A DNA stretch of 63,690 bases, the filler included. It is 6 parts of 6 records of this genome, joined end to end, with 100 filler letters (N's around TTAATTAATTAA, not from the genome) between each part and the next. Parts side by side here need not be neighbours in the genome. Positions count along the whole stretch, not along the records: positions 43,549 to 50,193 come from SRR31156797_6189; 5 more parts are not named here. The stretch is one strand, 5' to 3'. Positions 39,604 through 55,000 of the stretch are shown piece by piece. The stretch's first letter is position 1. Every line of letters starts with the position of its first letter. The notes under the pieces are model-generated. The model saw only the letters and a program-made list of their open reading frames with translations. It was not told the DNA's origin and searched no databases. Both the position numbers and the translations under genes were made by a program.

Positions 39604-41703
39604 TTAGTTTAAGAGTGCTTCCTTAACAGTTTTCCCAAGCTGCTCAAAGGAATAAGGTTTCAAGATAAAATATTTGGCACCGAGCTGTAATGCCCTCTTA
39701 ACCTCATTGCTCTCAGAAAAACCACTAACAATAACTGCCTTTGCATCCGGCACTATTTTTTTCACAGCTTCAAATGTCTGTCTGCCGTTAATGCCAGGGT
39801 CCATGAGCATATCTATAATGAATAAATCCGCACGGTGTTTTTTAACATATTCGACAGCTTCCTCCCCCGAAGAAACAACATCTACCCTATAGCCAAGTTC
39901 ACTCAGCATATATGAAGCGATATCCTGAAGGAGCGGTTCATCGTCAACAACCAGTATCTGCTCTTGATTTTTTGACATAAACATCCCCGCCTGGTAGTCA
40001 TGGAGTTCTTCATCTTTTTTTTCCTCGAAAAAACAAGGAAAGTAGAGTTTAAAACAGGTTCCCTTTTCAGAGCTGTCTACAGTAATTTTTCCATCGTGGT
40101 CAATGACCGTGTTATGTACCACGGTCAAGCCGAGCCCTGTGCCGCTTCTTCCCATCTCTTTTTTGGTATAGAATGGGTCAAAAATTCGCTGTTGGTCTTT
40201 GCTGGAAATTCCTGTTCCTGTATCGGATATTTCAACAACAACATACAGGTTGCTGCCCGTTTCCTGGTCATAAGTTTTGATCCTTACCGTGCCATTCGCC
40301 TCAATAGCTTCTGTTGCATTTGCAACCAGATTCATTAAACATTTTTTAATATGAATAGGTGAACAGAGAATAAAAGGATCAATAGCCTTCAAATCTTTCT
40401 CATACACTACCTCAGGGTGTTCTGAGGTTAGCTCTGAAAACTCAGGAGAAGAATAATATTGGTAAATCAACTCATGAAGATTGCTTCTTTCTCTGGTACT
40501 GGCAGCACTTCTAGCAACAGTCAGTAAATCCGCAACTATGGTGGATGCCCTTATGCCGGAATCATGGATAGCCTGTAATGGTTTTGTCAAGTCGCTGTCT
40601 TCTGGTATCTTTTTAAGTAACAGATCGGGGTAGCCGACAATCCCTGAAAGTATATTATTGAGATCATGGGCAACCCCTCCTGCTAATGACCCAATTGCTT
40701 CAAATTTTTGTGCGTGCCTCAGCTTTTCCTTCAGCTCTTCTTTTTCTTTTTGTGCTAGTTTCTTTTCAGAAATATCCCTCACAATGACAAGAATAGAACG
40801 TTTTCCACTAAAATAAATTGTTTTTGCAGAAACTTCTACATCTACCGGGGTGCCTCTTTTATGCTTGTATTTTCTTTCGCCTATGAAGTATTGATCAAGG
40901 ATTGGTACGGTGTCTATGTTGTTATCCACTTCACGGCGATCATGATAAACGATATCGTATACCTGACGGCCTAGTAACTCTTCCTTCGTAAAACCAAGCA
41001 TTTTTTGTAAAGATTGATTGGAATGAAGAATCTTTTTGCTTTTTGGGGCTAACAGAAATATACCCTCAATAGCTTGATTAACTACTGCAGCATACCTCTC
41101 TTCACTTTCCCGTAGCTCTTTTTCAGCCTGTATTTTTTTAATAACCTCTTGCTGCAACAGGTAATTTCTTTCAACAAGTTCACTGGATTTTTCCCCAATT
41201 AAAGTCTCGAGGTCGTTTCTGTGCCGAATGAGTTCCTCGTTTTGCTCGCAGGCTATACAGGAAGTTGCGAGCTTGGATAAGAGTGGTGTAAAAGACTTGA
41301 CGAGTAATGGATCAAGAGCTGGAGAGTTTTTCAGCAGTATCAGCAGGCCGTAACCCGGTAAACTCAGAAAATACAGATGCTTGTTTGGGTTAATTTCAAG
41401 ATGACGGGGGAGTTTTCGGGTAAATTCGTCAAACCATTTGTTGGTAAAATCTTTCGGAAAAAGATCTCTTGCCCGTTGGTAGGATTCTATACGCTGTGTG
41501 TCTCGTGGAATTGAAAAAACCTGCTCAAGGCACATGAGCTCAGATGAGAGGTGTTTAAGGGCTAGCACTCCTCCAGCCTGACAATTTAGTTTCCTTAATA
41601 TTGTTGAAATGCTTTTTCTCAACATATTCTTCAGGTCAAGGCTATGCCCAATAGCCATTGAAAATTCGTATTGAATCTGCAGGTGTTCAAGAGGTGAAAT
41701 CAT
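39604..41703 (-). CDS. hybrid sensor histidine kinase (PAS-HisKA-HATPase-REC)
   Basis: AGGVAHDLNN, NLVANA, DTGTGI, GTGLGL, VVDDE receiver; ATGA-coupled to the FIST gene. Confidence 0.92.
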   Translation of the reverse strand: MISPLEHLQIQYEFSMAIGHSLDLKNMLRKSISTILRKLNCQAGGVLALKHLSSELMCLEQVFSIPRDTQRIESYQRARDLFPKDFTNKWFDEFTRKLPRHLEINPNKHLYFLSLPGYGLLILLKNSPALDPLLVKSFTPLLSKLATSCIACEQNEELIRHRNDLETLIGEKSSELVERNYLLQQEVIKKIQAEKELRESEERYAAVVNQAIEGIFLLAPKSKKILHSNQSLQKMLGFTKEELLGRQVYDIVYHDRREVDNNIDTVPILDQYFIGERKYKHKRGTPVDVEVSAKTIYFSGKRSILVIVRDISEKKLAQKEKEELKEKLRHAQKFEAIGSLAGGVAHDLNNILSGIVGYPDLLLKKIPEDSDLTKPLQAIHDSGIRASTIVADLLTVARSAASTRERSNLHELIYQYYSSPEFSELTSEHPEVVYEKDLKAIDPFILCSPIHIKKCLMNLVANATEAIEANGTVRIKTYDQETGSNLYVVVEISDTGTGISSKDQQRIFDPFYTKKEMGRSGTGLGLTVVHNTVIDHDGKITVDSSEKGTCFKLYFPCFFEEKKDEELHDYQAGMFMSKNQEQILVVDDEPLLQDIASYMLSELGYRVDVVSSGEEAVEYVKKHRADLFIIDMLMDPGINGRQTFEAVKKIVPDAKAVIVSGFSESNEVKRALQLGAKYFILKPYSFEQLGKTVKEALLN

Positions 41704-42842
41704 AGAGAACCAATAACTCCTACGACACATGTTTTGTTGTACATTTCAAGATAATCGCTTCCGCAATTAGCAATTTCACCAAGAGAAAGGATACCTACAA
41801 TGTCGACCCCCTCCTGTTGAACCGCTGCCAATTCGTCTTTAAACTGATCTTCCAGGAAGAGGACTCTTGAAATACAATCAACCAGCAGTATAGTTTTATT
41901 CTCCTCACTGTTGAAATCTCCCACACCCTTTAGTGAAGCATTACTTGCAGCCCTGATCAGTGATTTTTTATCACCGGTTAAGATATCGACGAAAGACTCC
42001 TGTGGTATGGCAGCATTGAAGATCAAGCCCTTTTCTTCCGTGATCCCGAAAGGATCGCGGACTATCATTTCCGACTCAAACTTCATGATCCCCAATGGGT
42101 AGGATTTAGCAATATCAAAAAAGTTACCCTCGGTAATTTCCTGCTTGGTTTGTTTTTCAATCACTGCCTTGTAAACATCAAAAGCAGGTATCCAGTCCAG
42201 AGTTTTAATAGTGTTACCTTCAGACTCGGTGACCTTGTGATGTCCACTTACTGTTATTTCCCACCCATGTTGAACCCCGACACTGCTTTCAACATCAGCC
42301 AACACTAAAAGTGCCCCGTCTTTTTTCGTCCCCCGATTGGTTAAAAGGCAGTAAGTCTGTTCCAAATCAAGTTTATCTGTATTTATGGAACCTGCTCCTC
42401 CTCCAATATAGTTGAACTCCAGCCCAAAAATATTAAAGAGGCTTTCGGTAAAGTCAGCTACTCTATGGGAGTATCCATCCACCAACACAAACATTGTTTT
42501 TGCCCTTCCTACATCGGGAATAAGGGCATCTATTATTTCCTCAAACTCGGTATTGGGGTCACTTAATCCACCAATGAATTGAACGTTAATCTTTTTCTTG
42601 AAACCAATAACTATTGAGCCCTTGGTTAACTTGGACTGCCCGGATATTATAGCAGGAAATATCCCGCCAAAAACCGGTACTGAGATTTTTTGCAGAAGAG
42701 GGTCAAGAGCTTCCGGCACAAACTTATTACCGTCAGCGACAAACAGCAACAGACCACTGATTGTATTATCTTCAAGGATGCTGTCTATAGCGTGTTCAAG
42801 CCCTTGTATGGTACCGGTAAAGTCTACTTTCTTCTGGATCAT
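41700..42842 (-). CDS. FIST N/C domain protein (NosP-like)
   Basis: FGGIFP, YIGGGAG, HGW, PAFDVY, YPLG, VRDP, DCISR, GEIA, YNKT. Confidence 0.88.
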   Translation of the reverse strand: MIQKKVDFTGTIQGLEHAIDSILEDNTISGLLLFVADGNKFVPEALDPLLQKISVPVFGGIFPAIISGQSKLTKGSIVIGFKKKINVQFIGGLSDPNTEFEEIIDALIPDVGRAKTMFVLVDGYSHRVADFTESLFNIFGLEFNYIGGGAGSINTDKLDLEQTYCLLTNRGTKKDGALLVLADVESSVGVQHGWEITVSGHHKVTESEGNTIKTLDWIPAFDVYKAVIEKQTKQEITEGNFFDIAKSYPLGIMKFESEMIVRDPFGITEEKGLIFNAAIPQESFVDILTGDKKSLIRAASNASLKGVGDFNSEENKTILLVDCISRVLFLEDQFKDELAAVQQEGVDIVGILSLGEIANCGSDYLEMYNKTCVVGVIGSL

Positions 42843-43448
42843 ATTTTCTGTTATAAAATCCTATCTTACTTTGAAAATACGCACAGGGCGAGATCCTTTA
42901 TGGGGTGCCCCTGCAAGGCATTCCACAAACTTTATACCCTGTAAGGTTTCCCGAGGTACTCTTCAATTTAATCTTGAGTTAATTTCGCCTAATTAGTTAT
43001 TGAAGCTCAATATCTCCCCCCATGCGCAAGGTATCTGTTATTGATACATGATAAAACAGCTGCAATGACAATACAAATTTATATTGTCATTCATCAAGAC
43101 TGTGTCCTCGAAAACAGAGCACTGATATAACATTTTTCATTCAGGAAAGTAGGAGCTTCCATAATTACGGAGGGAACTATCCCTTTGCTGGACACCATGT
43201 AAGACGATATGGAAATGATTTTCGTCCCAAGGACTAGATTTGTACTACCAACAATAGACAGAACCTAAATCTATCAACTTAAGATTATTCCAGACAGGGT
43301 AGATCTTCCTACCTGAATGGAAAAAGGTAGAAATTGGGTAACTGAGCCTTGGACTTAACATTGCCAAATCCAAGGTATCAATTTCGTATCATTCTCGCTG
43401 GTTAACACTATTTCTGTATCTCTCGGAAAGGAGAGGTTAGAAAATGAC

Positions 43449-43548
43449 NNNNNNNNNNNNNNNNNNNNNNNNNNNNNNNNNNNNNNNNNNNNTTAATTAA
43501 TTAANNNNNNNNNNNNNNNNNNNNNNNNNNNNNNNNNNNNNNNNNNNN
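43449..43548. other. artificial contig spacer
   Basis: N44-TTAATTAATTAA-N44. Confidence 0.99.
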
Positions 43549-44139
43549 TACTTCACGGACATGTCCGAGCATTGCTGAACAACCAATACGTCAACGTTAG
43601 CGTATCCATAGGCTGCTGCGATTCATGGTACATTTGATCATGAATCGAGGGTTATATGAGGAACATTACTCCTGTCAGGAGGTAAGTAAAGTTATTACAG
43701 ATTATTAGACTGTACTGTTGGTAGGTTGATATGATTCTTTTGGAGTGTTTATAGATTCCTACCAGGGGGGGTAGATACTTGATGTGTGATCCAGAAAAAG
43801 GGGCTCACAGGAGTAGCACCACACAAGGCGCATCAGGTGTTTAGTGAATATTCTTATGATTTTCTATCATTTATGAATGTTTACTGATCTCTCTTTGGTT
43901 GTTGGCTAGATTATAATGTTTATCTCCTGCTTGATTTTTTGACCTAGAGAGAGAAAGTCTAATGTATTGGGTAGTGAGTAGACAGTTTATTAATATTTTT
44001 ATGGGGGGGGGGAGAAATAGCGATATTGACTTCGTTGGTGCAGGATGGAAATACTACTAATAGTATTTAAAAAACCGGAGAATAACTTGTCATAATCTCA
44101 CAGCAATAAAGCTTTGGAAATCCCAAAAAGGAGGTAGTA

Positions 44140-44691
44140 ATGAAAATTAAGGCCCCAACAGATTTTGGTGTTTTTGAATGGCAGGTAGACGAAACTAAAG
44201 ATGCTCCCGTTGATGTTGTGGGCGGTGCTGCTGCAGATGTTGAGGTTACTTTAATCGAGAGATCCTCTTCGGATAGAGGGTTTCAAATTGAATTCATTAA
44301 TCATAGTAGTAGTTGGATAAAAATTAGATATCGAACTGCCCAAGTACTTTGCTCGGGTTGGTTCTCCAGAAACTTAAGACCAAACAGAACTAAAACTATT
44401 GAAATTCCTGCTCACCAAATTGGCGTTTGTGAGCCTTTTGAGGCTGAATACCTCAAGAAAGAATCCATATCTGAAGAGTGGACCCAGACGGACCTGAAAG
44501 GAATATTTTACAGATGGGGAGGGCAATTCTCTAATCTTTTGTATATTAAAAACGAGAATGATGAATGGGCTCGTATCGAATATAATGACGGCTCGAGATG
44601 GCGTTCAAGCTTAGTTCCACCAAACTCTGATCATACATGTGAAACTTTAGCAGACAATTCCGGTACATTACTATTTAGGTGGAGAAATTAA
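44140..44691 (+). CDS. hypothetical protein with an internal duplication
   Basis: AGGAGGT RBS; two similar segments N...W.(K/R)I.Y...W.S....PN...T.E. Confidence 0.65.
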   Translation: MKIKAPTDFGVFEWQVDETKDAPVDVVGGAAADVEVTLIERSSSDRGFQIEFINHSSSWIKIRYRTAQVLCSGWFSRNLRPNRTKTIEIPAHQIGVCEPFEAEYLKKESISEEWTQTDLKGIFYRWGGQFSNLLYIKNENDEWARIEYNDGSRWRSSLVPPNSDHTCETLADNSGTLLFRWRN

Positions 44692-44855
44692 ATCCACTTA
44701 TAAAATGTTTGAGAGCACTTAATAAAAATAGTTTTTTACTAAGTGCTCTTTCGTTATTTTGGACCTGCCGGTCAACTCTCCGACCCTTTATCGCGTTCCC
44801 ATCTCACGGGATGCTTTTGCGAACTGGTGGGGCTATTCCTTTTGATGGAGGCGTG

Positions 44856-44996
44856 ATGTCTACAAAACTATACTTTCCCACCGGCCTTTCTGTTGAGCGT
44901 GCTAAAAAGGATGCAAAGAAATATGCAAAGGAGCACGGTAGCAGGCTCTCTTCTGCACTGGATTATATAGCGATGGCCAACTTCATGTTGCCTTAA
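44856..44996 (+). pseudogene. short, probably truncated ORF with a helical N-terminal domain of mobile-element type
   Basis: GGAGG RBS; VERAKKDAKK.AK..G..LSSALD.IA..N; ends after 46 aa. Confidence 0.35.
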
Positions 44997-45414
44997 GAAG
45001 CATATAGCGATTGAAGGTAGTTTTAGGAGTATAGTCATACCCAAATAGCAAAGGAATACTCCCAGGCTTCGATCGAAACTCGGGGATATTTGAGTTTTGA
45101 AAAGATGATCCCATACTGAGATAAAAAGCCATAATTGCTCCAAACTAAAAAACCAAAAAGAATAGGCTGATGCCTAGATTTCTCCTTGGTTTACCTAGCT
45201 TTTTATGGCGGTGGGGTGAGGTCGCCAGCTTTTACGTATAATATTAATACTACGATGAGTGGCTGAAATCAAGAGTGTGCAGCTGCAACTATCTGGTTTT
45301 GTTGCAATTGTGCGTGTTCGACGTATGGATTAAACATGTTCATATATTTCAATGTGCTCAACAGTTCTGAGCATGTAACAATAATATTGAAATAGGAGTA
45401 GCCAAAGCAAGAGT

Positions 45415-45615
45415 TCAGCAGCTTTTTATCCAGGTGATATAACCGGACTCATCATCATTGATGAACACCGAGGCTGTGATGTGCATGGCGTTGACCAGAC
45501 ACAGCCCTTCTCGAATATTGGATTCTCGCAGGCACTCTTCCACATCTTCCGTGATGTTGATGAACGCCCGCCGGGTCGGGATTTCGAAGAACAGTTCTTT
45601 GCGGTATGATTTCAT
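45415..45615 (-). pseudogene. yjbQ: 3'-truncated YjbQ (UPF0047) gene
   Basis: [27 protein letters not shown] then unrelated sequence; about half the normal length. Confidence 0.8.
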
Positions 45616-45617
45616 TG

Positions 45618-46055
45618 TTATTCCTTGATTATTTTTTCCCACTCCCGAACATCCCCATCCACCAGATGAAATAGCGGATGAGCATCAGGTCTTTCGGTTG
45701 CTTGAGATTCTTTGAACCGTTCAGGATCTCGTTTTTTCAGTTTTTTCAACAAATGATGCCATTCGTAGTCGAGTTGGCCCGATGTCTCTTCAATGGAAGG
45801 GGCAGTGGCTGTCTCATCAATCTTGTTCGCGTTGAAATTGTAGTTGCGTTCGCGTGATTCTGTCAGCACAGCGGAAAGGTATGCATCAATGGCGATTAAC
45901 GGATTGGGATGTTCGCGGAAACGGTTGAGTTGCGGGTGGTTTTTATACCCTTTGGTTTGACCATGAAGTACTGCGCGCGCAAGCAGACCTTCACGCCAGA
46001 GCGCGACCAAACCTTTGGCATCAAGGTGTTTGGGATGCACGGTCCAGAGCCGCAC
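45618..46055 (-). CDS. pyrimidine dimer DNA glycosylase/endonuclease V family protein
   Basis: [34 protein letters not shown]. Confidence 0.85.
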
Positions 46056-46060
46056 AGGCG

Positions 46061-46609
46061 TTACCTCGTTTCGGCCAGATAGCCCAGCTCACGCGAAAAG
46101 TCGTCGGTATCAACAGGCTTGTCATGGAGCAGGTGGCCCAGCCGCATCATAGGGCCGGTAGGAAAATCCTTGGTCCAACGGTCATAGTAACCGGTGAAAC
46201 CATACATCCAGAGCATTTCCGAGGCCTGTGTAAAGACCTGATCTGCAAAGGAACGCCATGTAGTGGTGGTTTTTATTTCCCAGACGGGGAATTCTTCGCC
46301 GTCCACTTCACGCTTGCCCTTGAAGTCCACGGTAATGTCGAGCTTCCCGTTGGGTCTTGGGATGACTGACCAGTAATAGAGCCAGCCTTCACCGCCCCAT
46401 TCGAATTCCGTGTGGCGATAATCTTTTTCCATGTTGGTAGGCGCGTTCAGGTTGTGGACATCACATAAACATCTGAACAGGTCCTTGAGTGGTTCAGAGA
46501 ACGTGGATTGAACGCTCAGATCGTAGTGGGAGTCACTGGCAATCAAGCGACATTCCAACCGACCGGAGCTGATTTCCGGGAAAAAAATCTGAAAACGTTC
46601 GCCAGACAT
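46061..46609 (-). CDS. hypothetical protein
   Basis: GGAGG RBS before MSGERF; first gene of a three-gene operon. Confidence 0.7.
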   Translation of the reverse strand: MSGERFQIFFPEISSGRLECRLIASDSHYDLSVQSTFSEPLKDLFRCLCDVHNLNAPTNMEKDYRHTEFEWGGEGWLYYWSVIPRPNGKLDITVDFKGKREVDGEEFPVWEIKTTTTWRSFADQVFTQASEMLWMYGFTGYYDRWTKDFPTGPMMRLGHLLHDKPVDTDDFSRELGYLAETR

Positions 46610-46822
46610 CCGTACCTCCAAGGAAAATACAATTTCTCAAATCCTACACAACTCCTTTTAGATTAGCAAAAGGAATGGCGTTGAAAGCGACTCTCATTGG
46701 TTTAATGAAAAGGGTGAATTTTAAACCCTGTCAAGATGATTCTTTATACCAATCAAATGATTTTACTCTACATTCAGTCACATTCAGGCGGTTTTCGAAA
46801 AACCCGTGCTAGTTTTTTTCAC

Positions 46823-46924
46823 CCGGCCCGGAGGTCTCGGCAAACGGCCCTTGCGATCATGGCGAAATGGTTTCGCTGACGGTTGCGTGGACACCCGTTA
46901 ACAGGACGCAGCTCGGATACCCGG
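46823..46924 (+). ncRNA. structured 5' leader of the capsid operon
   Basis: About 100-nt nested hairpin with two copies of a GG-C-CC / GG-AYAC-CC internal loop. Confidence 0.6.
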
Positions 46925-46960
46925 ACTCGTTGAGAATTTGTAACGGACAAGGAGAAAACG

Positions 46961-47791
46961 ATGTCCACGACTGTCAGTAATGGTTTTGTAACCCAATATG
47001 TTGAAATGGTGCATCAGGCCTATCAGGCTCAGGGCTCCAAAATGCGTCAGACCGTCCGCCTTCAGAGTGAGGTCGAAGGTTCCAAGTGCGTGTTTCAGAA
47101 AGTCGGTAAGGGTGCGGCTGGCAAGAAAACCCGTCATGGCAACGTGCCGCTCATGAACCTCAATCATTCCAATGTGTCCTGCACGCTGTCCGACTGGTAC
47201 GCTGCCGAGTACATCGACAAACTCGATGAACTCAAGGACAAGGGCGACGAAAAGCAGGTGGCAGCCAATGCCGGTGCCTGGGCTTTGGGGCGCAAGATTG
47301 ATGAGTTGATTATTACCAAGCTCGGCGGTGCTGCCAACGTGGTCGCTGAGAATACGTCCGGCCTGACCAAGGACAAGATTCTTCAGGCCTTTGGCACGCT
47401 GAATGCCAATGATGTGCCGGACGATGGCCACCGTTTTGCCGTGGTCGGGCCGCATCAGTGGAACGAATTGCTGAATATTCAGGAGTTCAAATCCAGTGAT
47501 TACGCTGGTGAACAGTATCCTTGGCTCAAGGGAACTGAATCCCGCACATGGCTCGGTATCACCTGGATGTTTCACACCGGCCTGCCGCTGGATAACGGTA
47601 TGCGTAAGTGCTTTGTCTACCATCGCAACGCTGCTGGTCTGGCCGAGGGCCAGAAGGTCAAGGCATTCGTGGACTGGGTGCCGGAAAAGGCCGCCCATCT
47701 GGTGGACCATATGCTCAGTGCCGGTGCCTGTCTTATCGACCCGGACGGCGTGATTGAAATCCAGTGCGACGACGACGCAGTGATTCTCTAA
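46961..47791 (+). CDS. phage major capsid protein, podovirus-like HK97-fold type
   Basis: FVTQY..VHQAYQ.QGSK.R.TVR, DWYAAEYIDKLDELK, ALGRKIDELII, L.ANDVP, EFKSSDY, W.G..W pattern; AAGGAG RBS. Confidence 0.82.
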   Translation: MSTTVSNGFVTQYVEMVHQAYQAQGSKMRQTVRLQSEVEGSKCVFQKVGKGAAGKKTRHGNVPLMNLNHSNVSCTLSDWYAAEYIDKLDELKDKGDEKQVAANAGAWALGRKIDELIITKLGGAANVVAENTSGLTKDKILQAFGTLNANDVPDDGHRFAVVGPHQWNELLNIQEFKSSDYAGEQYPWLKGTESRTWLGITWMFHTGLPLDNGMRKCFVYHRNAAGLAEGQKVKAFVDWVPEKAAHLVDHMLSAGACLIDPDGVIEIQCDDDAVIL

Positions 47792-47810
47792 GCTCATTTA
47801 AAACTACAAC

Positions 47811-47830
47811 CGGAGGGGGCGACCCCTCCG
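47811..47830 (+). other. intercistronic GNRA-capped hairpin without a U tract
   Basis: CGGAGGGG-GCGA-CCCCTCCG. Confidence 0.65.
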
Positions 47831-47853
47831 CCATATATATGGAGAATTGAACA

Positions 47854-48102
47854 ATGGCATACGTAAGTGAAGACATGCGGCTCATGGGTGGTGTCCCGGG
47901 TCAGCAGTTGTTTCTGTATCGTTCTGAAGACGCTGTAGCATCCGTGACTGGCTCCGGTTATTTTGATGAAGCAGCTATCGATTACACCCTCGGGACTGGC
48001 GACATCATCATCGCCTGCACCGGCGCTGATCAGGCCGAGGCCGTGGATATGTTGGTCGCCACCAACACGGATGGTGTGGTCACGGTAGTCAGCGGCACTT
48101 AA
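47854..48102 (+). CDS. small capsid-associated (decoration/cement-like) protein
   Basis: GG...[17 protein letters not shown]....L..GD.I pattern typical of the gene following this capsid type; GGAG RBS. Confidence 0.6.
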
Positions 48103-48153
48103 TCTGTTCGGCTTATAAAGAGTCGACCTGGAAAAGCGTTTCATACTCCTCCA

Positions 48154-48188
48154 GAGGACCTTCTTTCGGGAGGGTCCTCGCTTTTTTT
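48154..48188 (+). terminator. intrinsic terminator closing the capsid operon
   Basis: GAGGACCTTCT-TTCG-GGAGGGTCCTC followed by GC and T7. Confidence 0.85.
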
Positions 48189-48480
48189 GAAAAAGGCTGT
48201 AAATAAAAGACAAATAAAAAAGGCCAATATGGATAAAGGGGATCCTGAGTATACTCGTTGGCTTTTGGAGATAAAGAAAAATCCGCCGTGGAAGAGCAAA
48301 GAAAAGACGCCAACGGAAAAGGTGCAAAGTGTGACGCATCCGTTGGGAGAAGAGGTAGGGATGACGATGTTAGAACAACTGGTGAAGGACAGGCCTTTCT
48401 TATGGAAAAGTGTTGGGTAAAGGACTGAGTCGGCTTGGTGTGCTTACAGATATTCTTGGCAACTCAGATGAGGCTTGGTA

Positions 48481-48699
48481 ATGAAAAGATTGACCAAAGA
48501 ACTCTATGTTGAGTTTTTGATTGGGGTTGTGAGCGGTATTGTTTTCGGAGGAGCAACATATTGGTATAGTCAATCATGGGAGCTTGCTACCGTGGTTGGT
48601 ATTGTCCTTTTTGCCGGAGCTTTGCGGAGTATGAATTCAACGTACAGTGCTTTTCGTCGCAAACCGGAATATCAGAAAGATACCAAGGATAATTCATGA
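48481..48699 (+). CDS. small two-TM hypothetical protein
   Basis: GAGG RBS, two hydrophobic stretches; ACGGGGATG/CATCCCCGT hairpin follows. Confidence 0.55.
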   Translation: MKRLTKELYVEFLIGVVSGIVFGGATYWYSQSWELATVVGIVLFAGALRSMNSTYSAFRRKPEYQKDTKDNS

Positions 48700-48752
48700 A
48701 CAACGGGGATGCCCATTCGGACATCCCCGTCTATTTTGAATGATCGTAAGCT

Positions 48753-49589
48753 TTAGAATTTTAGCGTCAGCCCGGACCCGACTTCCTTGAGCGGACATTT
48801 TTTTGCCATGACGATTTTGGCGGCGAGGTCGGTACAATGGCAGGCGTATAGGTTTTCCAGACTCAATGCGGCCAGATAGTCCGTGGTCGGATCAAGTCGT
48901 TCCGGTTTGGCCTGTTGCAAGTGGAAGCCGCCGAGGACCGTGCGGACTTTGTCCACACCTGTGAGGCGCTTCGCCTGTTCGACGGTATTACAAATACCGG
49001 CGTGAGCGCAGCCGGAGATAACCACCAGTCCAGAATCCGAGACATAGGCCAGAGCGGTGTCGTCTGGCATGTCGTCAGGTACTGGCCCATTTTCTTCAAT
49101 GCGTTCACCCAGTGGAGCGGGCGGTTCGAAGTCCATGACGCGTTCAATTTCTCCGAGCGTGACCAATGTGTCCGTGAGCCAAACCGGCTTGTCGGTCAGG
49201 TTCAATTCAAACTGGCGTGATAATTTTTCTTCTGCCAGCAACATACCGAGTTCCGGCACTGCACTTTTTCGTTTGGACGTGAAGGCCTGCGGATGGGCTA
49301 CAATCCGAGGGCGTGCGTGCGGCTGTTTATGAATAGCCGCCTCAAAATGATGGCGAATCAGATAATCCAACCCCCATGTGTGATCAAAGTGACCGTGAGA
49401 CAGGGCAATCCAATCTAGATTGAGCAGGTCGATCCCCTTGCGCTGTGCGTTGATCAAAAAGGCGTCGGAATATCCGGCGTCGAAAAGTATGTTTTTGCCG
49501 TCATCCTGAATAAACATGGACAGTGCGGGTTCAGCCAGAAATTGGGTGCCGATGAGTGAATTGTTATCGACGAGAAAGGTCAGTTCCAT
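48753..49589 (-). CDS. MBL-fold metallo-hydrolase
   Basis: LFDAG, SHGHFDH, ISGCAHAG, GGFHL, CHCT. Confidence 0.9.
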   Translation of the reverse strand: MELTFLVDNNSLIGTQFLAEPALSMFIQDDGKNILFDAGYSDAFLINAQRKGIDLLNLDWIALSHGHFDHTWGLDYLIRHHFEAAIHKQPHARPRIVAHPQAFTSKRKSAVPELGMLLAEEKLSRQFELNLTDKPVWLTDTLVTLGEIERVMDFEPPAPLGERIEENGPVPDDMPDDTALAYVSDSGLVVISGCAHAGICNTVEQAKRLTGVDKVRTVLGGFHLQQAKPERLDPTTDYLAALSLENLYACHCTDLAAKIVMAKKCPLKEVGSGLTLKF

Positions 49590-49648
49590 GGGAGGGCTCC
49601 GGGTTATTGTCACTGGAATCAATTGCGGAAACAGTCTATGCTCTTCCC

Positions 49649-50140
49649 ATGAATTCTCGCAACCTCGTTTTATCACTTTTCCTGTTGTCTCTGTTGACTT
49701 TTTTTCCGGGTCACGCTTCGGCCCTTGATGTCCAATTCCTTCATATAATAGATGGGGACTCTTTGGTGGTCGTGTCTGGTGGCGATTCCGTCGAGGTCCG
49801 GCTTATCGGTGTGGATGCCCCGGAATATCGACAGGAATACAGTAACAAGGCCAAAGTCTTTTCCCTGAAATTCTGCCATGGCAAACGTCTGAAATTGGTC
49901 TTTGATCGAGAGAAAAAGGACCGTTACGGCAGAACGCTCGCCTATGTCTATGCCGACGGCGAAATGCTCAATAAAGCCATCATCCAAGCTGGATTGGCCC
50001 TTGCCTTTAAGGTTAAGCCCAACACCAGATATTCCTCTCTTTTCAAGGCTGTTGAGAAAGAAGCCAAGAAAGCGAAGCGAGGCTTTTGGCGATTCGGTGG
50101 TTTGAAACAAACTCCTGCTCAATGGCGTAGGGCTCATTAG
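49649..50140 (+). CDS. thermonuclease (SNase) family protein
   Basis: Signal peptide, IDGDS, VRLIGVDAPE, DRYGRTLAYV. Confidence 0.9.
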   Translation: MNSRNLVLSLFLLSLLTFFPGHASALDVQFLHIIDGDSLVVVSGGDSVEVRLIGVDAPEYRQEYSNKAKVFSLKFCHGKRLKLVFDREKKDRYGRTLAYVYADGEMLNKAIIQAGLALAFKVKPNTRYSSLFKAVEKEAKKAKRGFWRFGGLKQTPAQWRRAH

Positions 50141-50193
50141 TCGGCTTGCGATAGCGGCACATCTGCACATTTTTCGGCCTTGCCGAGTCCTCA

Positions 50194-50293
50194 NNNNNNN
50201 NNNNNNNNNNNNNNNNNNNNNNNNNNNNNNNNNNNNNTTAATTAATTAANNNNNNNNNNNNNNNNNNNNNNNNNNNNNNNNNNNNNNNNNNNN
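50194..50293. other. artificial contig spacer
   Basis: N44-TTAATTAATTAA-N44. Confidence 0.99.
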
Positions 50294-52235
50294 CTGGTAT
50301 CTCAACAAATACAAAATCAAAATCTTCAAAATTCACATGTTCAAGTTCCGGATCCAACTCCTTTATTTTTGCAACCTTATGAAAAGAATTATCGATTTTG
50401 TAATTATACATATCTACTCCTGCAATTGGCTCAACTGTTTCGTTTGTTACAAATAAAGTTTTATAACCAATTGATGCCAGTTTTTGCAGCAAAAGAACCA
50501 GTAATAACGATTTTCCTTCTTTACCAGTGGTACTAAACACCAGGTTCGAATCGGCAATATGTGAAGGATTACCACTTTGTTCTTTATTAAAAATCAGCCT
50601 GCGGGCAATGGCTTCAAGTGCGCCGCTTTTGACCATCTCAAGGTCAATCCTTTTTGAAACCTTGGTTATACGCGGAAAAACTGATGCAACTTTAAGACCG
50701 GTAAGTTTTTCTGCTCGTTGTGCAGTTTTTATATTCTGATCCAGAAAATCCAGAATGATTATTAATGAGGCAGGAATAATAAATCCAATCATTAGTCCAA
50801 TCAGCAATAACATTTTTCGCTTACTTGGCTCCGATTTTAGCGGGAATAATGGTGGTTCTAATACCCTTAAGTTCGAATTTAGCTCAACATTTTGTTGTTT
50901 TAATTTCGCTACATTCAAACTATGAAGTATTGAAAGGTATTCTCGTTCAGCAATGTCAATCTTACGTTCAAGACGCTTCATGGTAGCTCCCTTTGGAGCA
51001 TAGTCGCTAATAACTCTTCTAAACTCTTCCTTTTTTTGTGTACCCACAAAAAGTTTTGCCTTCGCGGCTTCGTAATTTACTACTTCTTCCAACCACTCTG
51101 TTAATACCGAGTTAGAGGTTATTCCGTCAATGCTGTTATCAATAAAATAAGAACGTTCAACCGAGTTTCTTAATTCATCCTGGAGTTTATACGATTCTAT
51201 TTGTAACTGAGCAATCTCATCATCATATTGTTGTGTGTTAAGCGAATCAAATCTAAGCTGGTATTCTTTCGTAGCTATTTGCATGTTAATATTTGCCAGC
51301 TTATTTCTTAATTCAACAATATTAGAATTATTTAATTGCTTTTTTTGCTGAGCAGTTAGTTTATTCTCCAGAACCTTTAATACTGATTCAGAAGCTGCCA
51401 GATCCATTTTTATTTCGTTGTATTTTGCCGAAAACAATTCTTTTTGAGCAACGATGTGTTCGGTTTGTTCATAGTAGTTAATAATGTTATTCTTCTTGTT
51501 AAACTGTAGCAGCTCATCTTCTGCCATATCCAGTTTGCCTTTAGCATCGTCCAACTGTGCCTGAAAGTACTTTAATATCGCATCTGACTGATTGATTTTT
51601 ACCGATGAATAACTGTTAATAAAAACTTCGGTTAATATCTCGAGTGTTTTTTGACAAATTCCAGGATCTGTTGATCGATACTTAACCTCTATCATATCGC
51701 TCGAGCTTATTCGCCTTGCCTTTAGTTTTCCGGCAATTTTCCCATAACTATAATCGGGATGGTTTAATACTGCGAGCTTATAAATAAAGTTTGAAAAGTT
51801 TTGCTCTTTAAAAGCTAAAAAGGCCTGGTAAGTTCTATCAAAATCGCCTTTAACAACCAGGTCTTTTACTTCCTGTGGAACAATTCGCATTAATTTACGA
51901 TAAGACTCACTACTGATTATCTCTGAGCTTGGCCCCTCTTGTATCATGTGCAAGGTAAACAACTTTAAACCAACCTCTTCGAGTGTTTCCCGCGACTTTA
52001 CAATATTAATCAGGTTGTCGAAAGCGATCATTGTACTTAAACGGTCGACCTTACTATTTTCAAGCGATGTTAAACTTGAACCAGAAGCTATTCCGGTATA
52101 AATATTTGTAAAAGAAGTATACGACTTAGGCTCTCCTTTAGTGGAATAAAAAATTACTGCAAACAGAACAATTGGTCCTAAAATGAGGATATAAATATGC
52201 CTTAACAGTAACCTTATGAAGTATAGTATATTCAA
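50294..52235 (-). CDS. GumC/Wzc-like polysaccharide co-polymerase (3' end cut)
   Basis: N-terminal TM, long coiled coil, P..P..SKR plus TM, degenerate Walker A STTGKEGKS. Confidence 0.8.
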
Positions 52236-53005
52236 TTCGCCTGGTTTAAATTAATTTTTATCCCTACTGTTTCCTGTAATAGATGCAATGCCGTTGAAAA
52301 TTCAATCTTAGCTTCTTCAAGCCCTAGCTTTGCATTAAAATACCTGCTTTGTTGATTGGAATAACTCGACAAACTTATTTGTCCTTTTTTATAGTTTACT
52401 TCCGAATTCATCGTCTGCAACTTAGCTGTCTCGTATTCAGCGATTGACAACGATAATTTAGCATAAGACTTTAGCACATTACCATACTGTACAATAACAA
52501 GTTTTCTTAATTCCTGTATTGTTCGTTCTCGCTGATATCCAAGTCGTACGGCCTCGTTTTCCGCCATTTCTTTTTCTGAATTATCAAAAAACCTGGAGAT
52601 TGGCACTTTTAGCATTACACCAATGCTATAGCGTGCCTGTTTGGTACTATGAGTTGTTACATCATCAATTCCCAGGTCTTCTGTAAGAATAAGGTTATCA
52701 AATACCCCATATTTGGCCGAGCCGTCAATACTAAAATAGGTCAGCCAATCCTTCTTTTCTGAAGTTACTTTTAATTCCTGGATAATAATGTCTGCATCAA
52801 TCATTTTTAGCAAAGGAGAATGTATTTCAGCAGCATCGAGCAAGCTTTGAAGAGAAGGAAGTCGCTTTGAAATATCATTCTGCTCCAAATTACTTTCCAA
52901 TTTAACCTGTGCTTCCTGCGCAATCAGTTCCATACCAACTACCACAAACACAAGAATCAATATTATTTTACACACTCGAATATTCATTTCAATATGGCTA
53001 AACAT
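52232..53005 (-). CDS. short TolC-family outer-membrane protein
   Basis: Signal peptide, A..HSPLLK, VPIS, single OEP repeat. Confidence 0.7.
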   Translation of the reverse strand: MFSHIEMNIRVCKIILILVFVVVGMELIAQEAQVKLESNLEQNDISKRLPSLQSLLDAAEIHSPLLKMIDADIIIQELKVTSEKKDWLTYFSIDGSAKYGVFDNLILTEDLGIDDVTTHSTKQARYSIGVMLKVPISRFFDNSEKEMAENEAVRLGYQRERTIQELRKLVIVQYGNVLKSYAKLSLSIAEYETAKLQTMNSEVNYKKGQISLSSYSNQQSRYFNAKLGLEEAKIEFSTALHLLQETVGIKINLNQAN

Positions 53006-54203
53006 TTTCCTTTTGAAATACTGCCTTAAAAGTTCTGATTATAATCCATATATCCTTCCAAAAAGAGAATCTACTGTTGGCTATTTCCGAATAGGTATTA
53101 TCCAGTTGTTTACGCTCTTCCGGAGACATTTTAGAGGTTTTTCCTCTTGCTTCAACCTGCCACAAACCAGTAATGCCAGCAGGACCATTAAACCTGTCTG
53201 TCCAGTTATCGGTAGTCAGTAATTCTGCTTCGTAAAGAGGTAAAGGTCTGTTTCCAACAATCGACATATCTCCTTTTAAAACATTTATTAGCTGTGGTAA
53301 CTCATCAATACTAAGTTTGCGAATAATATGACCAACCTTTGTAATCCTTGGATCATTCTCAAATTTTACAAAAGCACTTTCCTGGTCCTCCTTCTTATGT
53401 TGAATATGCGAAGCCTCATCCACCTCTAAATCATCACCAAATAAAATTGTTCCATCTATGTTGTTCTCATTCGTACTGTTTTGTACCTCTTCAACGATAA
53501 TTTCTTGTCCGGTCTCCTCATTTTTATATTGGTTCAGGTGTTGAAACTCTTTTAACCTCCTGTCAGCATCAGGATACATCGATCTTAATTTCAGAAAGTT
53601 AAAAATACGATATCCTGTTCCCACCCTTTTCGAGATATAATATACCTTACCTTTGGACTCAAGGCGTATGGCAATTATAAAAACGATTAATATAGGCGAT
53701 AGCATCAAAAGAGCCAGACCCGAGAATGTGATATCGAAAGAGCGTTTAAAAAACGGAGTTTTATAAATTTCAGTTTCAGGTTCATTCTTTTCTTTATGAA
53801 CCAAGGTAATACGGGGTTTTAATACAGTAAGAGTTTTAATACGGTTGTATACCATAGCGGAATCAACGGGCTTTTGGAACAAATCATCAACCTTTTGAAT
53901 AAAAGCATGCTTTATATCTTCATCTGTTTTTTCCGCTGTTAATACAATAAATGGTATCTGGTTTTCTTTATCAACTTCTTTTATAAACGATTCATGAAAA
54001 TCTATTCCGTTGATACCCGGCAGCTCTTTTTCACAAACAACACCATCAACCCTGTTGCCTTTTTTTAACCAATTTGTAGCACTTAAGGCATTTGGAAACT
54101 GAGTTAAATTTGTTAAACCGGCTTGTTCGTTGAAACAGCTGCTTATCGTTTCGTCCGATCCGATATAAAGAATCGACAATTTCCGTGTTGGTATACCTGC
54201 CAT
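52998..54203 (-). CDS. receiver-domain-fused priming sugar transferase
   Basis: N-terminal REC-like domain; KRSFD, KLRSM, DPRITKVG, SIDELPQL, VGNRP, GITGLWQV. Confidence 0.9.
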   Translation of the reverse strand: MAGIPTRKLSILYIGSDETISSCFNEQAGLTNLTQFPNALSATNWLKKGNRVDGVVCEKELPGINGIDFHESFIKEVDKENQIPFIVLTAEKTDEDIKHAFIQKVDDLFQKPVDSAMVYNRIKTLTVLKPRITLVHKEKNEPETEIYKTPFFKRSFDITFSGLALLMLSPILIVFIIAIRLESKGKVYYISKRVGTGYRIFNFLKLRSMYPDADRRLKEFQHLNQYKNEETGQEIIVEEVQNSTNENNIDGTILFGDDLEVDEASHIQHKKEDQESAFVKFENDPRITKVGHIIRKLSIDELPQLINVLKGDMSIVGNRPLPLYEAELLTTDNWTDRFNGPAGITGLWQVEARGKTSKMSPEERKQLDNTYSEIANSRFSFWKDIWIIIRTFKAVFQKENV

Positions 54204-54213
54204 AACATACGTT

Positions 54214-54579
54214 TTAACGGTTCAACACTCGCTCAATTCTTATCAATAGTTCTTCCGGATTAAACGGTTTTACTAAGTAATCTTCAGCTCCCATTTTTAA
54301 GCACTTAATCCTATCATTACTGCTATCGAGACTACTAAGAACAATTATTGGTACATCTTTAAAATATCCACTCGCTTTAACATGCTCAATCAATTCAAAA
54401 CCATCAAGATTGGGCATTTGCAAATCAGTTAAAATTAAATCGGGAATGTTTCCTTCTTGTAACCAGGTTAAAGCTTGTAATCCATCTTCTTTGGTTTCCA
54501 CCTCAAAATCTTTACTAAGAAACTGTACGATTAGCTTGCTAATTGACGATTTATCGTCAACAACTAAGATTTTTTTCAT
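54214..54579 (-). CDS. single-domain response regulator
   Basis: LVVDD, DLQMP, KPF. Confidence 0.92.
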   Translation of the reverse strand: MKKILVVDDKSSISKLIVQFLSKDFEVETKEDGLQALTWLQEGNIPDLILTDLQMPNLDGFELIEHVKASGYFKDVPIIVLSSLDSSNDRIKCLKMGAEDYLVKPFNPEELLIRIERVLNR

Positions 54580-54706
54580 TGCTTTTAATTAATGGTTTGT
54601 AATTTGTCCTCATAACAAATATATGATACTGATAAAAAAAACTGTCACAAACATGGCCAAATCAGGCTAATTTGAGCAAATACCCCAGGGACTACTTCCA
54701 AATTTC

Positions 54707-55000
54707 TTACCTGATGTTAGGCAAAAAGAAAAACCTTATGTAAAAATACCCAACCGCCTCACTCAAAACTGCCCTAACTCCCCTAATTTTTTGCCACCAT
54801 CGGTCCAAATCATAGCTAAATTCCTCCACCAAAATAACACCAACCTTTATGGTTTCCTTTAAAACCATCTGAAACAAAACTGACCTCGTGCCGCATGACA
54901 ACCAAGGATTAAAACAATAATATTATCTGCGGGATAATTTTTTTAAACAAGTGCCGGGGTGTATGCTCTGTTTCGTACAACATTGTCAGAAGGTAAAGCA
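54707..55000 (-). pseudogene. degenerate YdcF/ElyC-family gene fragment
   Basis: Pieces RNRAYTPAL*, GCHAAR and, after a frameshift, YDLDRWW..GVRAVLSE..Y.Y.RFFF.P; upstream limit approximate. Confidence 0.5.

Follow-up and report, generated by a model that had tools for sequence, protein, structure and literature searches.

Autogenous operators are known from the ribosomal-protein leaders, the thrS operator (dimeric ThrRS), T4 gp32 and RegA, and the scaffolding protein of P22. Hairpins that stabilise a messenger RNA (mRNA) from its 5′ terminus are known from the Escherichia coli ompA leader and from the leader of T7 gene 10, which is a capsid gene. The leader RNA described here occupies positions 46823-46924 of the window, a 63,690-nucleotide (nt) stretch of DNA whose coordinates are used throughout, and precedes a major capsid gene on the + strand. 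Judging by its conservation and covariation, the hairpin formed by this leader is a member of a widespread family of capsid-gene leader RNAs that is absent from Rfam. The unit of the family, the loop module, appears to be a helix broken by a single C opposite A-Y-A-C (rarely A-Y-A-A or N-C-A-C) with G-C pairs on both sides. The leader opens a two-gene unit made up of the major capsid gene and a small virion-type gene.

The C-loop is described as an RNA-protein binding site formed by an asymmetric internal loop in a hairpin stem, and the available text of the two accounts (PMC9516175, PMC2952876) gives its longer strand as having two cytosines around an exposed adenine. The NAD+ class I riboswitch, nadA, is restricted to sites upstream of nadA genes in Acidobacteria, as stated in the available part of its description (PMC6859854). 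A 2023 survey in Comput Struct Biotechnol J reports, in its available portion, candidate RNAs that are consistently upstream of major capsid genes (PMC10690425). In the gene transfer agent (GTA) RcGTA, phage-derived virion genes lie at several chromosomal loci and are co-regulated, according to the available text of PMC5026251.

The minimum free energy (MFE) fold of the leader RNA is a single long hairpin of −32.8 kcal/mol. In its outer part CCGG-C-CCGG is paired with CGG/ATAC/CCGG and in its inner part AACGG-C-CC is paired with GG-ACAC-CCGTT; between the two modules a short helix is followed by an irregular middle part. The initial annotation had proposed a nested hairpin with two copies of one asymmetric 1x4 internal loop; its letters are as claimed, and the MFE fold contains all of its parts. 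The distance from the 3′ end of the hairpin to the AAGGAG of the ribosome-binding site, put there at about 25 nt, is 24 nt, and the start codon follows at 36 nt. A close strain (runs X2-X4, apparently DNA) has a single difference inside the hairpin, G46833T, which falls within the GGAGG of the leader 5′ strand at a position that is unpaired in the fold and variable among relatives.

A protein-based scan of one genome per species found 52 capsid loci (80 stretches matched the pattern and 53 were confirmed). Of these, 39 lie in Desulfovibrionaceae-type genomes, with 68-93% amino acid identity, and 13 in Rhodospirillaceae-type alphaproteobacteria, with 52-56% identity; IMG/VR contributed 13 more (49-81%). 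The nearest cultured phages by capsid are HTVC010P-type pelagiphages, Methylophilales phage MEP301 and Vibrio podophages (33-43%). Upstream of the Desulfovibrionaceae capsid genes, GGCCC ... GGAYACCC recurs once or twice. When the module is defined strictly, as xxGG-C-CC ... GG-NNNN-CCxx with xx paired, 83 modules fall within 200 nt before the 66 capsid genes (13.2 kb in all), and in 59 of them the loop is A-Y-A-C/A. The remainder of those sources (1.045 Mb, both strands) contains 484 strict modules, of which only 6 have this loop, two of the six belonging to the same leaders just past the 200-nt limit. The loop module is thus present near capsid genes far above chance.

The covariation was examined in a close group of 14 sequences (the window, L001-L011, L014 and L049), aligned with MAFFT ignoring structure. 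Fifteen of the 29 consensus pairs keep pairing through two-sided changes. The single C is invariant both at 46827 (14/14 close relatives) and at 46848, the inner long-strand loop letters A-x-A-C are invariant in all 14 sequences, and the outer long-strand loop of the relatives reads ACAC, ATAC, AGAC or GCAC. The outermost pair of the inner-module AACGG helix takes four standard pair types among the 14 sequences, and in the 20-sequence alignment described below the upper-hairpin helix (46852..46887) has two-sided changes in 9 of its 11 pairs; at the pair next out from the loop-flanking G-C, a single exchange of G-C for A-U is seen, along with a few G-U variants. The apical GRAA-YGG-TTYC is kept in the close group, and the phages have a tetraloop or a short loop instead. 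The suggestion that the 1x4 loop is a repeated conserved module is borne out by these loop letters, which are (nearly) invariant, and by the covarying stems that adjoin them; it is the absence of such covariation and loop conservation upstream of homologues that the initial annotation had named as evidence to the contrary.

A covariance model (R1) built from the close-group alignment scores the window hairpin at 81 bits and recovers its own 14 sequences together with L054, L053, L065, L036, L013 and L012, at E = 0.0017-0.66. In a 20-sequence alignment (A2), 93.1% of the cells are standard pairs, compared with 27-59% after a shift of the 3′ partners by 1-3 columns; two-sided changes occur in 21 of 29 pairs, and none of 500 column shuffles is as good. 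The G-U cells outnumber the A-C cells in both structural alignments, by 46 to 5 in the model-fitted 20-sequence alignment and by 15 to 2 in the other. This excess fits an RNA read from the capsid-sense + strand, which is what had been proposed from the G-U pairs of the window hairpin.

A second model (R2) was built only from 14 copies of a 66-nt marine-phage subfamily, described below, and was run over 568 kb on both strands. It matches the window at 46823-46924 on the + strand with 24.7 bits (E ~0.006, a rough value from a short calibration), and this is its sole match in the window. It also matches 13 other Desulfovibrionaceae leaders, several phage leaders and a prophage capsid leader in the related genome G001. 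The synonymous divergence (dS) between the window capsid gene and those of L002 and L003 is 1.05-1.31, yet the module letters are invariant, at a leader identity of 0.51-0.72. The ratio of nonsynonymous to synonymous divergence (dN/dS) of the capsid is ~0.05 against both, which indicates strong purifying selection. The leader family, too, is kept by selection. In the Rfam search that the initial annotation had called for, run on positions 40000-55000 of the window, no Rfam 15 family was matched at E <= 1. The window leader has the make-up by which the family is defined, namely at least two GG-C-CC / GG-AYAM-CC modules some 25-55 nt upstream of a major capsid gene. These observations make it very probable that the leader is a real structured cis-acting RNA tied to capsid expression. 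Its parts and the features around it are collected in Table 1.

Table 1. Leader RNA, promoter and two-gene capsid unit in the window
Feature	Position	Strand	Description
Whole structured leader RNA	46823..46924	+	two nested loop modules; fold, covariance models and covariation
Outer module, 5′ strand	46823..46831	+	CCGG (P1), loop C 46827, CCGG (P2)
Outer module, 3′ strand	46912..46924	+	CTCGG, loop ATAC 46917-46920, CCGG
Inner module, 5′ strand	46843..46850	+	AACGG, loop C 46848, CC
Inner module, 3′ strand	46889..46899	+	GG, loop ACAC 46891-46894, CCGTT
Variable upper hairpin	46852..46887	+	TGCGATC/GGTTGCG stem; GGCGAAA-TGG-TTTCGCT apical stem-loop
Ribosome-binding site and capsid start	46949..46963	+	AAGGAG 46949-46954; ATG at 46961
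Upstream promoter element	46726..46735	+	CCCTGTCAAG; presumed regulator site
A-tract and -10 region	46798..46815	+	A-tract, CCCGTGC, -10-like hexamer TAGTTT (46810-46815)
Major capsid gene	46961..47791	+	276 amino acids; PF19821 Phage_capsid_2, profile match
G+C-rich hairpin	47811..47830	+	GCGA loop, no U-run after; between capsid and small gene
Small acidic protein gene	47854..48102	+	82 amino acids; phrog_18004; always beside this capsid gene
Terminator-like hairpin	48154..48190	+	hairpin and T-run; ends the two-gene unit

The motif was also sought without reference to proteins, by running two IUPAC patterns of the module letters over IMG/VR. The first pattern is found at 118 loci at least, mostly by chance in G+C-rich phages, and 17 of the 118 listed pass a nested-pair filter. 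Fourteen of the 17 form a single 66-nt marine-phage subfamily, to which L104 is a related fifteenth locus; L182, a collagen-like repeat, was set aside and L086 is unclear. In the 13 subfamily loci with a called open reading frame (ORF) the motif lies 26-33 nt before the ORF, and the eight complete ORFs have 269-271 codons' worth of protein. PF19821 was found in all four of the subfamily ORFs scanned and in the L104 ORF, which makes five of the six downstream proteins scanned overall, and one capsid of the subfamily is 44% identical to that of the window. The second pattern is found at 120 loci or more; among those listed, 92 have a match to a capsid hidden Markov model within 1.1 kb downstream on the same strand, and the 28 others include several with no more than 300 nt of downstream sequence and several coding-DNA repeats. 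In the phage contigs the motif occupies the gap directly before the capsid gene, and among its carriers are ordinary phage contigs, as well as prophages, that also have genes for portal, scaffold and tail.

The arrangement of the modules differs between these groups. For the 66-nt subfamily, a hand-drawn structure of 14 sequences has 96% of its positions paired, compared with 31-50% when slid, and 4 of its 18 pairs show compensatory changes. Between its modules lie all the sequence marks of a K-turn, namely a covarying C stem of 4 base pairs (bp), a 3-nt bulge, invariant GA/GA and an NC stem, and GAAA caps its inner hairpin. The two modules of the window are joined without these marks, as GA is missing beside the inner helix on the unbulged strand. 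In L196 and L253 the inner module is flipped, with the long strand on the 5′ side, and its helix is closed by GCAA; these two precede a head protein of 381-382 amino acids from another family, phrog_267. At L277 the two modules form separate hairpins in tandem, the only module of MEP301 carries CAUA, and one group of Desulfovibrionaceae leaders has a canonical outer module together with the inner variant GGAG-C(N)-CC / GG-CCAC-CUCC. As the copies may be nested, tandem or flipped, each module seems to be an independent unit. An Rfam search of seven loci with compact, flipped and tandem forms gave only a chance match to SCARNA21 (E = 0.88), which lies off the motif.

The K-turn and the GAAA loop of the 66-nt subfamily, together with some 12 conserved letters per module and a loose resemblance to the nadA (NAD+) riboswitch, whose two domains carry ACANCCCC bulges in the available text of PMC7297122, would suit a riboswitch-like sensor in which each module, or a pair of modules joined by the bend, binds a small molecule or ion. 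Such a sensor is improbable. The window has no expression platform, as there is no terminator after the hairpin and no pairing of the Shine-Dalgarno (SD) sequence. The variable spacing, order and orientation of the modules argue against one shared pocket, and the Rfam models, that of nadA among them, give no match at E <= 1.

In L087 (positions 918-1517), and at the same place in other loci of the 66-nt subfamily, an extra gene for a 199-amino-acid protein lies between the scaffold and capsid genes and has a weak match to phrog_308 ('internal virion protein'). The stop codon UGA of this gene is also part of the K-turn 5′ strand, and its last codons encode the 5′ strand of the outer module. A ribosome terminating at this gene would melt the outer half of the motif.

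Transcription of the window leader would start at a composite promoter that occurs once in the 63.7-kb window, at 46729-46815. A YTGTCAA-type element, (C)CCTGTCAA, precedes the A-tract by a fixed distance of 60-71 nt in 36 of the 39 Desulfovibrionaceae capsid loci. The A-tract, SCGGGG and TAnnnT were located by regular expression in 39 of 41 Desulfovibrionaceae loci; L005 was placed wrongly, and the two loci missed have visible variants. The first paired base of the hairpin follows the -10 hexamer by 7 nt in the window and by 7-9 nt in the close group, and from this spacing alone the start is predicted at about 46821-46823. A simple sigma-70 scan of the window did not list the promoter at 46798..46815. 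No evidence was found for a start downstream of 46924, the other observation that the initial annotation had named as contrary to its proposal. A 209-nt contig of metatranscriptome X18, 90-95% alike, covers 46902-47110 and joins the 3′ part of the leader to the start of the capsid gene; it is a weak hint of their co-transcription, with DNA carry-over being possible, and the missing cover of 46448-46891 in X18 carries no evidential weight.

The same promoter type is found before other virion genes in the related genomes G001, G002 and G003, where the dispersed-unit loci L187 and L309-L325 were examined. Within 19.9 kb around the G001 capsid gene (~9-10 kb on each side) no other phage gene was found by Pfam, and its neighbours are MurJ, Fpg, an SNase-type nuclease, an MBL-fold protein, Dus and others. 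The window shares with the related genomes the capsid unit, at 78% nucleotide identity over 46718-48094, and the MBL and SNase genes, at 65-68%. Each of the three genomes has a portal gene (PF12236, E down to 3e-152) with a small gene; by its sequence the portal is intact or nearly so in all three, the G003 match having one internal TAG. A scaffold-like gene adjoins the portal in G001 and G002; that of G003 lies with the small gene in a unit of its own. Genes for tail tubular proteins A and B are present in each genome, a terminase unit (large subunit) in G002, and a weak Terminase_6N match in G001. These genes are dispersed among housekeeping genes, at distances of 9 to ~300 kb from the capsid gene.

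The promoter of the dispersed units is made up of a CTGTCAA element, T-rich repeats, A-tract-CCGGGG and TAnnnT. It is found before all five readable tube genes, the portal operon, the terminase unit and several paralogues of 380-440 amino acids, and the upstream promoter element of the window also precedes the dispersed tail-tube genes. Sites matching the composite pattern number 8, 15 and 4 in the three genomes, compared with 1, 4 and 1 for the reversed pattern. When R1 and R2 were run on 17-19 virion loci with this promoter (120-140 kb), they found the capsid leaders only, all other matches having E >= 0.13. The leaders of the tube genes are ~50 nt long and have no motif. Among virion genes of one promoter type, only the capsid genes carry the motif in the loci scanned.

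The scattered podovirus virion genes look like a regulon of the gene-transfer-agent type, although this likeness is one of gene content and promoters. G001 also has a contiguous prophage (L188, G001:C1:2124000-2143900), which encodes portal, scaffold, a capsid of 40% identity, the small protein and tubes A/B, and its capsid gene, too, has the compact RNA motif; a single genome thus contains both the dispersed genes and an intact prophage related to them. No published description of the dispersed virion genes was found in the searches made. They were considered as the Dd1 agent of Desulfovibrio desulfuricans, and this identity was rejected because the Dd1 candidate genes lie elsewhere; it is further disfavoured by the fact that none of the 52 capsid loci is from D. 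desulfuricans. The published Dd1 candidate is the neighbourhood of Ddes_0720, as given in the available part of PMC6854486 (Table 1 of that paper). At L319 (G002:282900-292500), three composite promoters lie within 6.3 kb, each before a paralogue. These paralogues share ~60 N-terminal residues and near-identical 5′ leaders, and they may be exchangeable fibre or receptor-binding genes.

The dispersed genes bear on the proposal that the leader is an RNA packaging signal of a shell that has no portal, or a site of capsid nucleation, where the capsid protein would encapsidate or assemble on its own mRNA by means of the modules. In the window and ~39 Desulfovibrionaceae genomes the capsid gene does stand apart from other phage genes, with one small gene as its only companion, and repeated modules resemble multi-site packaging signals. 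The same motif, however, is carried by ordinary phages and prophages that have portal, scaffold and tail genes. Moreover, genes for portal, terminase and tail tubes are retained at other chromosomal sites in G001-G003, behind the same promoter, which points to particles that package DNA. These findings weaken the proposal to the point where it is very improbable.

By combining these results, it is possible to describe how the leader might work. The reading preferred here, to which a probability of about 0.55 can be given, is that the leader acts in cis and specifically on capsid genes, its loop modules being bound by a factor that determines how much capsid is made. Because the promoter is shared, the leader is found on the capsid gene only and capsid protein is needed in far more copies, the element would act in cis and after transcription, setting the amount of capsid relative to other virion proteins. 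The loop modules would be docking sites for a trans-acting factor, each serving as an independent unit. As the modules are independent, repeatable and free in orientation, with invariant loop letters, they are somewhat more likely than not to be protein-binding sites. Of the earlier suggestion of a protein-binding module for autoregulation, the repetition, the conservation and the location in the capsid leader, 3′ of the promoter, hold; the binding itself we infer. The factor would most parsimoniously be unassembled capsid protein, acting by autogenous feedback, because the capsid gene alone always accompanies the motif; this identification is tentative. The 82-amino-acid neighbour is an unlikely RNA binder, being strongly acidic. 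Furthermore, since the hairpin begins at ~0-2 nt from the predicted 5′ end of the transcript, it should protect the mRNA by slowing decay that depends on the 5′ end. That this is the first autogenous RNA operator of a capsid of the double-stranded DNA (dsDNA) phage type (HK97 fold), setting stoichiometry in a dispersed regulon or candidate GTA, is more doubtful still. Below the preferred reading, the alternatives are ranked in the order of passive stabiliser or processing site, operator for another protein, ligand sensor and RNA packaging.

The location of the hairpin would also suit a passive role, in which the leader is a 5′ stabiliser and/or a processing site and the capsid mRNA outlasts the co-regulated mRNAs. 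The hairpin, starting 7-9 nt after the -10 box, would block decay at the 5′ end of the transcript in the dispersed units, or after an endonuclease cut in the phage operons, where it sits just before the capsid gene; the loops would do no more than guide a host RNase of the RNase III or E type, or give the fold its shape. The short, motif-free tail-tube leaders behind the same promoter agree with a demand for capsid protein that far exceeds the demand for tube or portal protein, and the SD region is left free. Generic stabilisers, however, need no conserved loop letters, and the C and A-Y-A-C are near-invariant from Desulfovibrionaceae to marine phages; the ordinary stability of the fold also speaks against a mere stabiliser. 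A passive role is therefore unlikely, at roughly one chance in several.

It is less likely again that the leader is an operator for a protein other than the capsid, by which a regulator of the phage or of the dispersed set, or a host RNA-binding protein such as a CsrA-type GGA binder or a ribosomal protein, times or activates capsid translation. Two or more independent modules would suit a dimer or two monomers, and the occurrence of the motif with two capsid families favours a factor other than one capsid protein. There is a GGA on each 3′ strand and two more at the ribosome-binding site; the GG of GGA is predicted to be paired, however, and GGA is not clearly enriched, no background count having been made. 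No candidate gene co-occurs with the motif in the loci read, and the dispersed units have only the capsid and the acidic 82-amino-acid protein.

Several observations weigh against the reading of the modules as sites for a capsid-setting factor. The stability of the window fold is ordinary, as 161 of 200 dinucleotide shuffles fold equally well or better (z = +0.99), and the leaders of five relatives have z = -0.16 to -2.6 against shuffles. Thermodynamic stability was dropped as support for this reason, and since the hairpin is not unusually stable, its support is comparative. The alignment A2 was fitted to the model, which favours structure and G-U pairs. No variation is seen in the G-C pairs adjoining the loops; they therefore give no evidence for or against pairing and could reflect plain sequence conservation. 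The MFE folds of the 14 close-group sequences give the inner loop in 12 cases and the exact outer loop in only 6, the 5′ C being paired or P1 open in the rest, and the nested motif is not in the MFE fold of L053. There is no motif at ~16 homologous capsid loci with a different conserved leader (the 13 alphaproteobacterial genome loci and L058-L060 from IMG/VR), and L057, pelagiphage Hodr and L186 are without a structured leader, the gaps of Hodr and L186 being too short; the motif, being absent upstream of many homologous capsid genes, is therefore dispensable. That the motif also stands ahead of another, distant capsid family suits a general role at capsid genes no less than sequence-specific recognition by one particular capsid protein. 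A K-turn and GNRA loops, as in the compact forms, would be expected in RNAs that fold by themselves more than in simple protein operators. Finally, we know of no dsDNA-phage capsid protein that binds its own mRNA.

An SD-sequestering or anti-SD switch was also considered for the window and rejected, as the duplex of the leader with the SD region (-11.0 kcal/mol) is no better than those of shuffled SD regions (-12.8 +/- 2.1 kcal/mol). In the prophage and phage forms L015, L019 and L055, ACCCUCC pairs with AGGAGGG somewhat better than in controls, and an SD switch is possible only in forms that carry ACCCUCC. A different and highly conserved leader, ~150 nt upstream of the capsid start, is found in L038-L048, L051, L052 and L058-L060. 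In this leader of alphaproteobacterial prophages, whose capsid is of the same family, a hairpin has a conserved 18-nt loop and the SD appears to be paired; its trio CCGGGGGC / GCCCUCGG / CGAGGGC resembles an anti-anti-SD, an anti-SD and an SD.

The capsid protein matches PF19821 with E = 1.3e-71, residues 5-270 aligning with profile positions 1-292 of 293, and phrog_3437 with E = 5.4e-66. The hairpin between the capsid and small genes may be an attenuator or a stabiliser; its inverted repeat was also listed on the - strand. When the portal, scaffold and tube proteins were compared with the window by tblastn, only the capsid and the small gene were found. The rest of the window is ordinary bacterial chromosome of ~36-44% G+C, with genes for ArgRS, AmtB, MMPL transporters and a topoisomerase, and the part at 46-50 kb has 50-52% G+C. 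Downstream of the unit, at 48753-50140, an MBL-fold gene (- strand) and an SNase-type nuclease gene (+ strand) overlap tail to tail, in a region with a G+C of ~0.50 compared with ~0.40 around it. This pair is syntenic with the capsid unit in the window and in seven Pseudodesulfovibrio-type loci (L001, L002, L003, L005, L006, L010 and L014). Divergent from the capsid promoter and upstream of it are a pyrimidine-dimer DNA glycosylase gene (PF03013, 45618-46055, - strand) and a 186-codon ORF with no family matches (46061-46621, - strand).

If the preferred reading is true, the leader represents a new and abundant class of phage RNA element, given its recurrence at 120 or more IMG/VR loci and before capsid genes in 92 of those listed. 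It could show how podoviruses of the HTVC010P and MEP301 type and their domesticated relatives produce capsid in large excess over other virion proteins from shared transcription signals. The motif marks a dispersed virion gene set with one promoter type in sulfate reducers, maybe an unrecognised gene transfer agent. The repeating unit is very small, well defined and cleanly mutable, and if a dedicated binder exists, it would be a compact, orientation-independent RNA module useful as a tool.

The comparison with described RNAs can now be made. The window hairpin has, like the C-loop, an asymmetric internal loop in its stem, and has it twice. It differs in that the first letter of the long strand is A, where the available accounts of the C-loop usually have C, and AUAC, ACAA and AUAA have one cytosine fewer; the likeness is at the level of sequence, from which the triples and non-Watson-Crick pairs that define the C-loop cannot be read. 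The nadA riboswitch is alike in its two similar bulged-stem domains, each with ACA-N and then C's, as far as the available text of PMC7297122 describes them. Its domains, however, are tandem and not nested, its 8-nt ACANCCCC bulge is unopposed and on the 5′ strand, and this bulge docks on a GYG loop 7 bp away (the 7-bp P1a helix), which is not so here. Membership of the nadA (NAD+-I) class was rejected on this difference of topology and on the lack of an Rfam match.

No published description of the motif was found; the word 'capsid' is absent from the main text of Weinberg et al. 2017 (PMC5737381). The rows compared from the available portion of the 2023 survey (PMC10690425) name HK97-type and PHA00201 capsid domains and not PF19821, and overlap is possible, so the motif may have been listed earlier among the candidates of that survey. 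The leader appears to be a new RNA motif class of the cis-acting leader type, and a capsid-specific control element that is apparently undescribed.

The dispersed genes differ from RcGTA in being of the podovirus type (T7-like connector, tail tubular A and B), in belonging to a different phylum and in being divided among far more dispersed units. The candidate GTA set of G001-G003 comprises portal, scaffold-like, capsid, small protein, tubes A/B and, in G002, the terminase large subunit, dispersed behind the shared composite promoter.

The hairpins of ompA and T7 gene 10 are alike in having a stem at, or a few nt from, the 5′ end of the transcript of a very highly expressed gene; here the stem lies 7-9 nt past a conserved -10 hexamer, and the 5′ end is predicted from this spacing only. 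Those stabilisers are short and need no specific internal loops, whereas here the loops are the most conserved part. The autogenous operators differ from the window leader in that their binders are established, the one proposed here being inferred, and the SD of the window is not occluded. What they have in common is a structured leader, whose small conserved loops are often duplicated, before the gene of an assembling protein, and the logic that the capsid leader would share with them is feedback by the unassembled protein.

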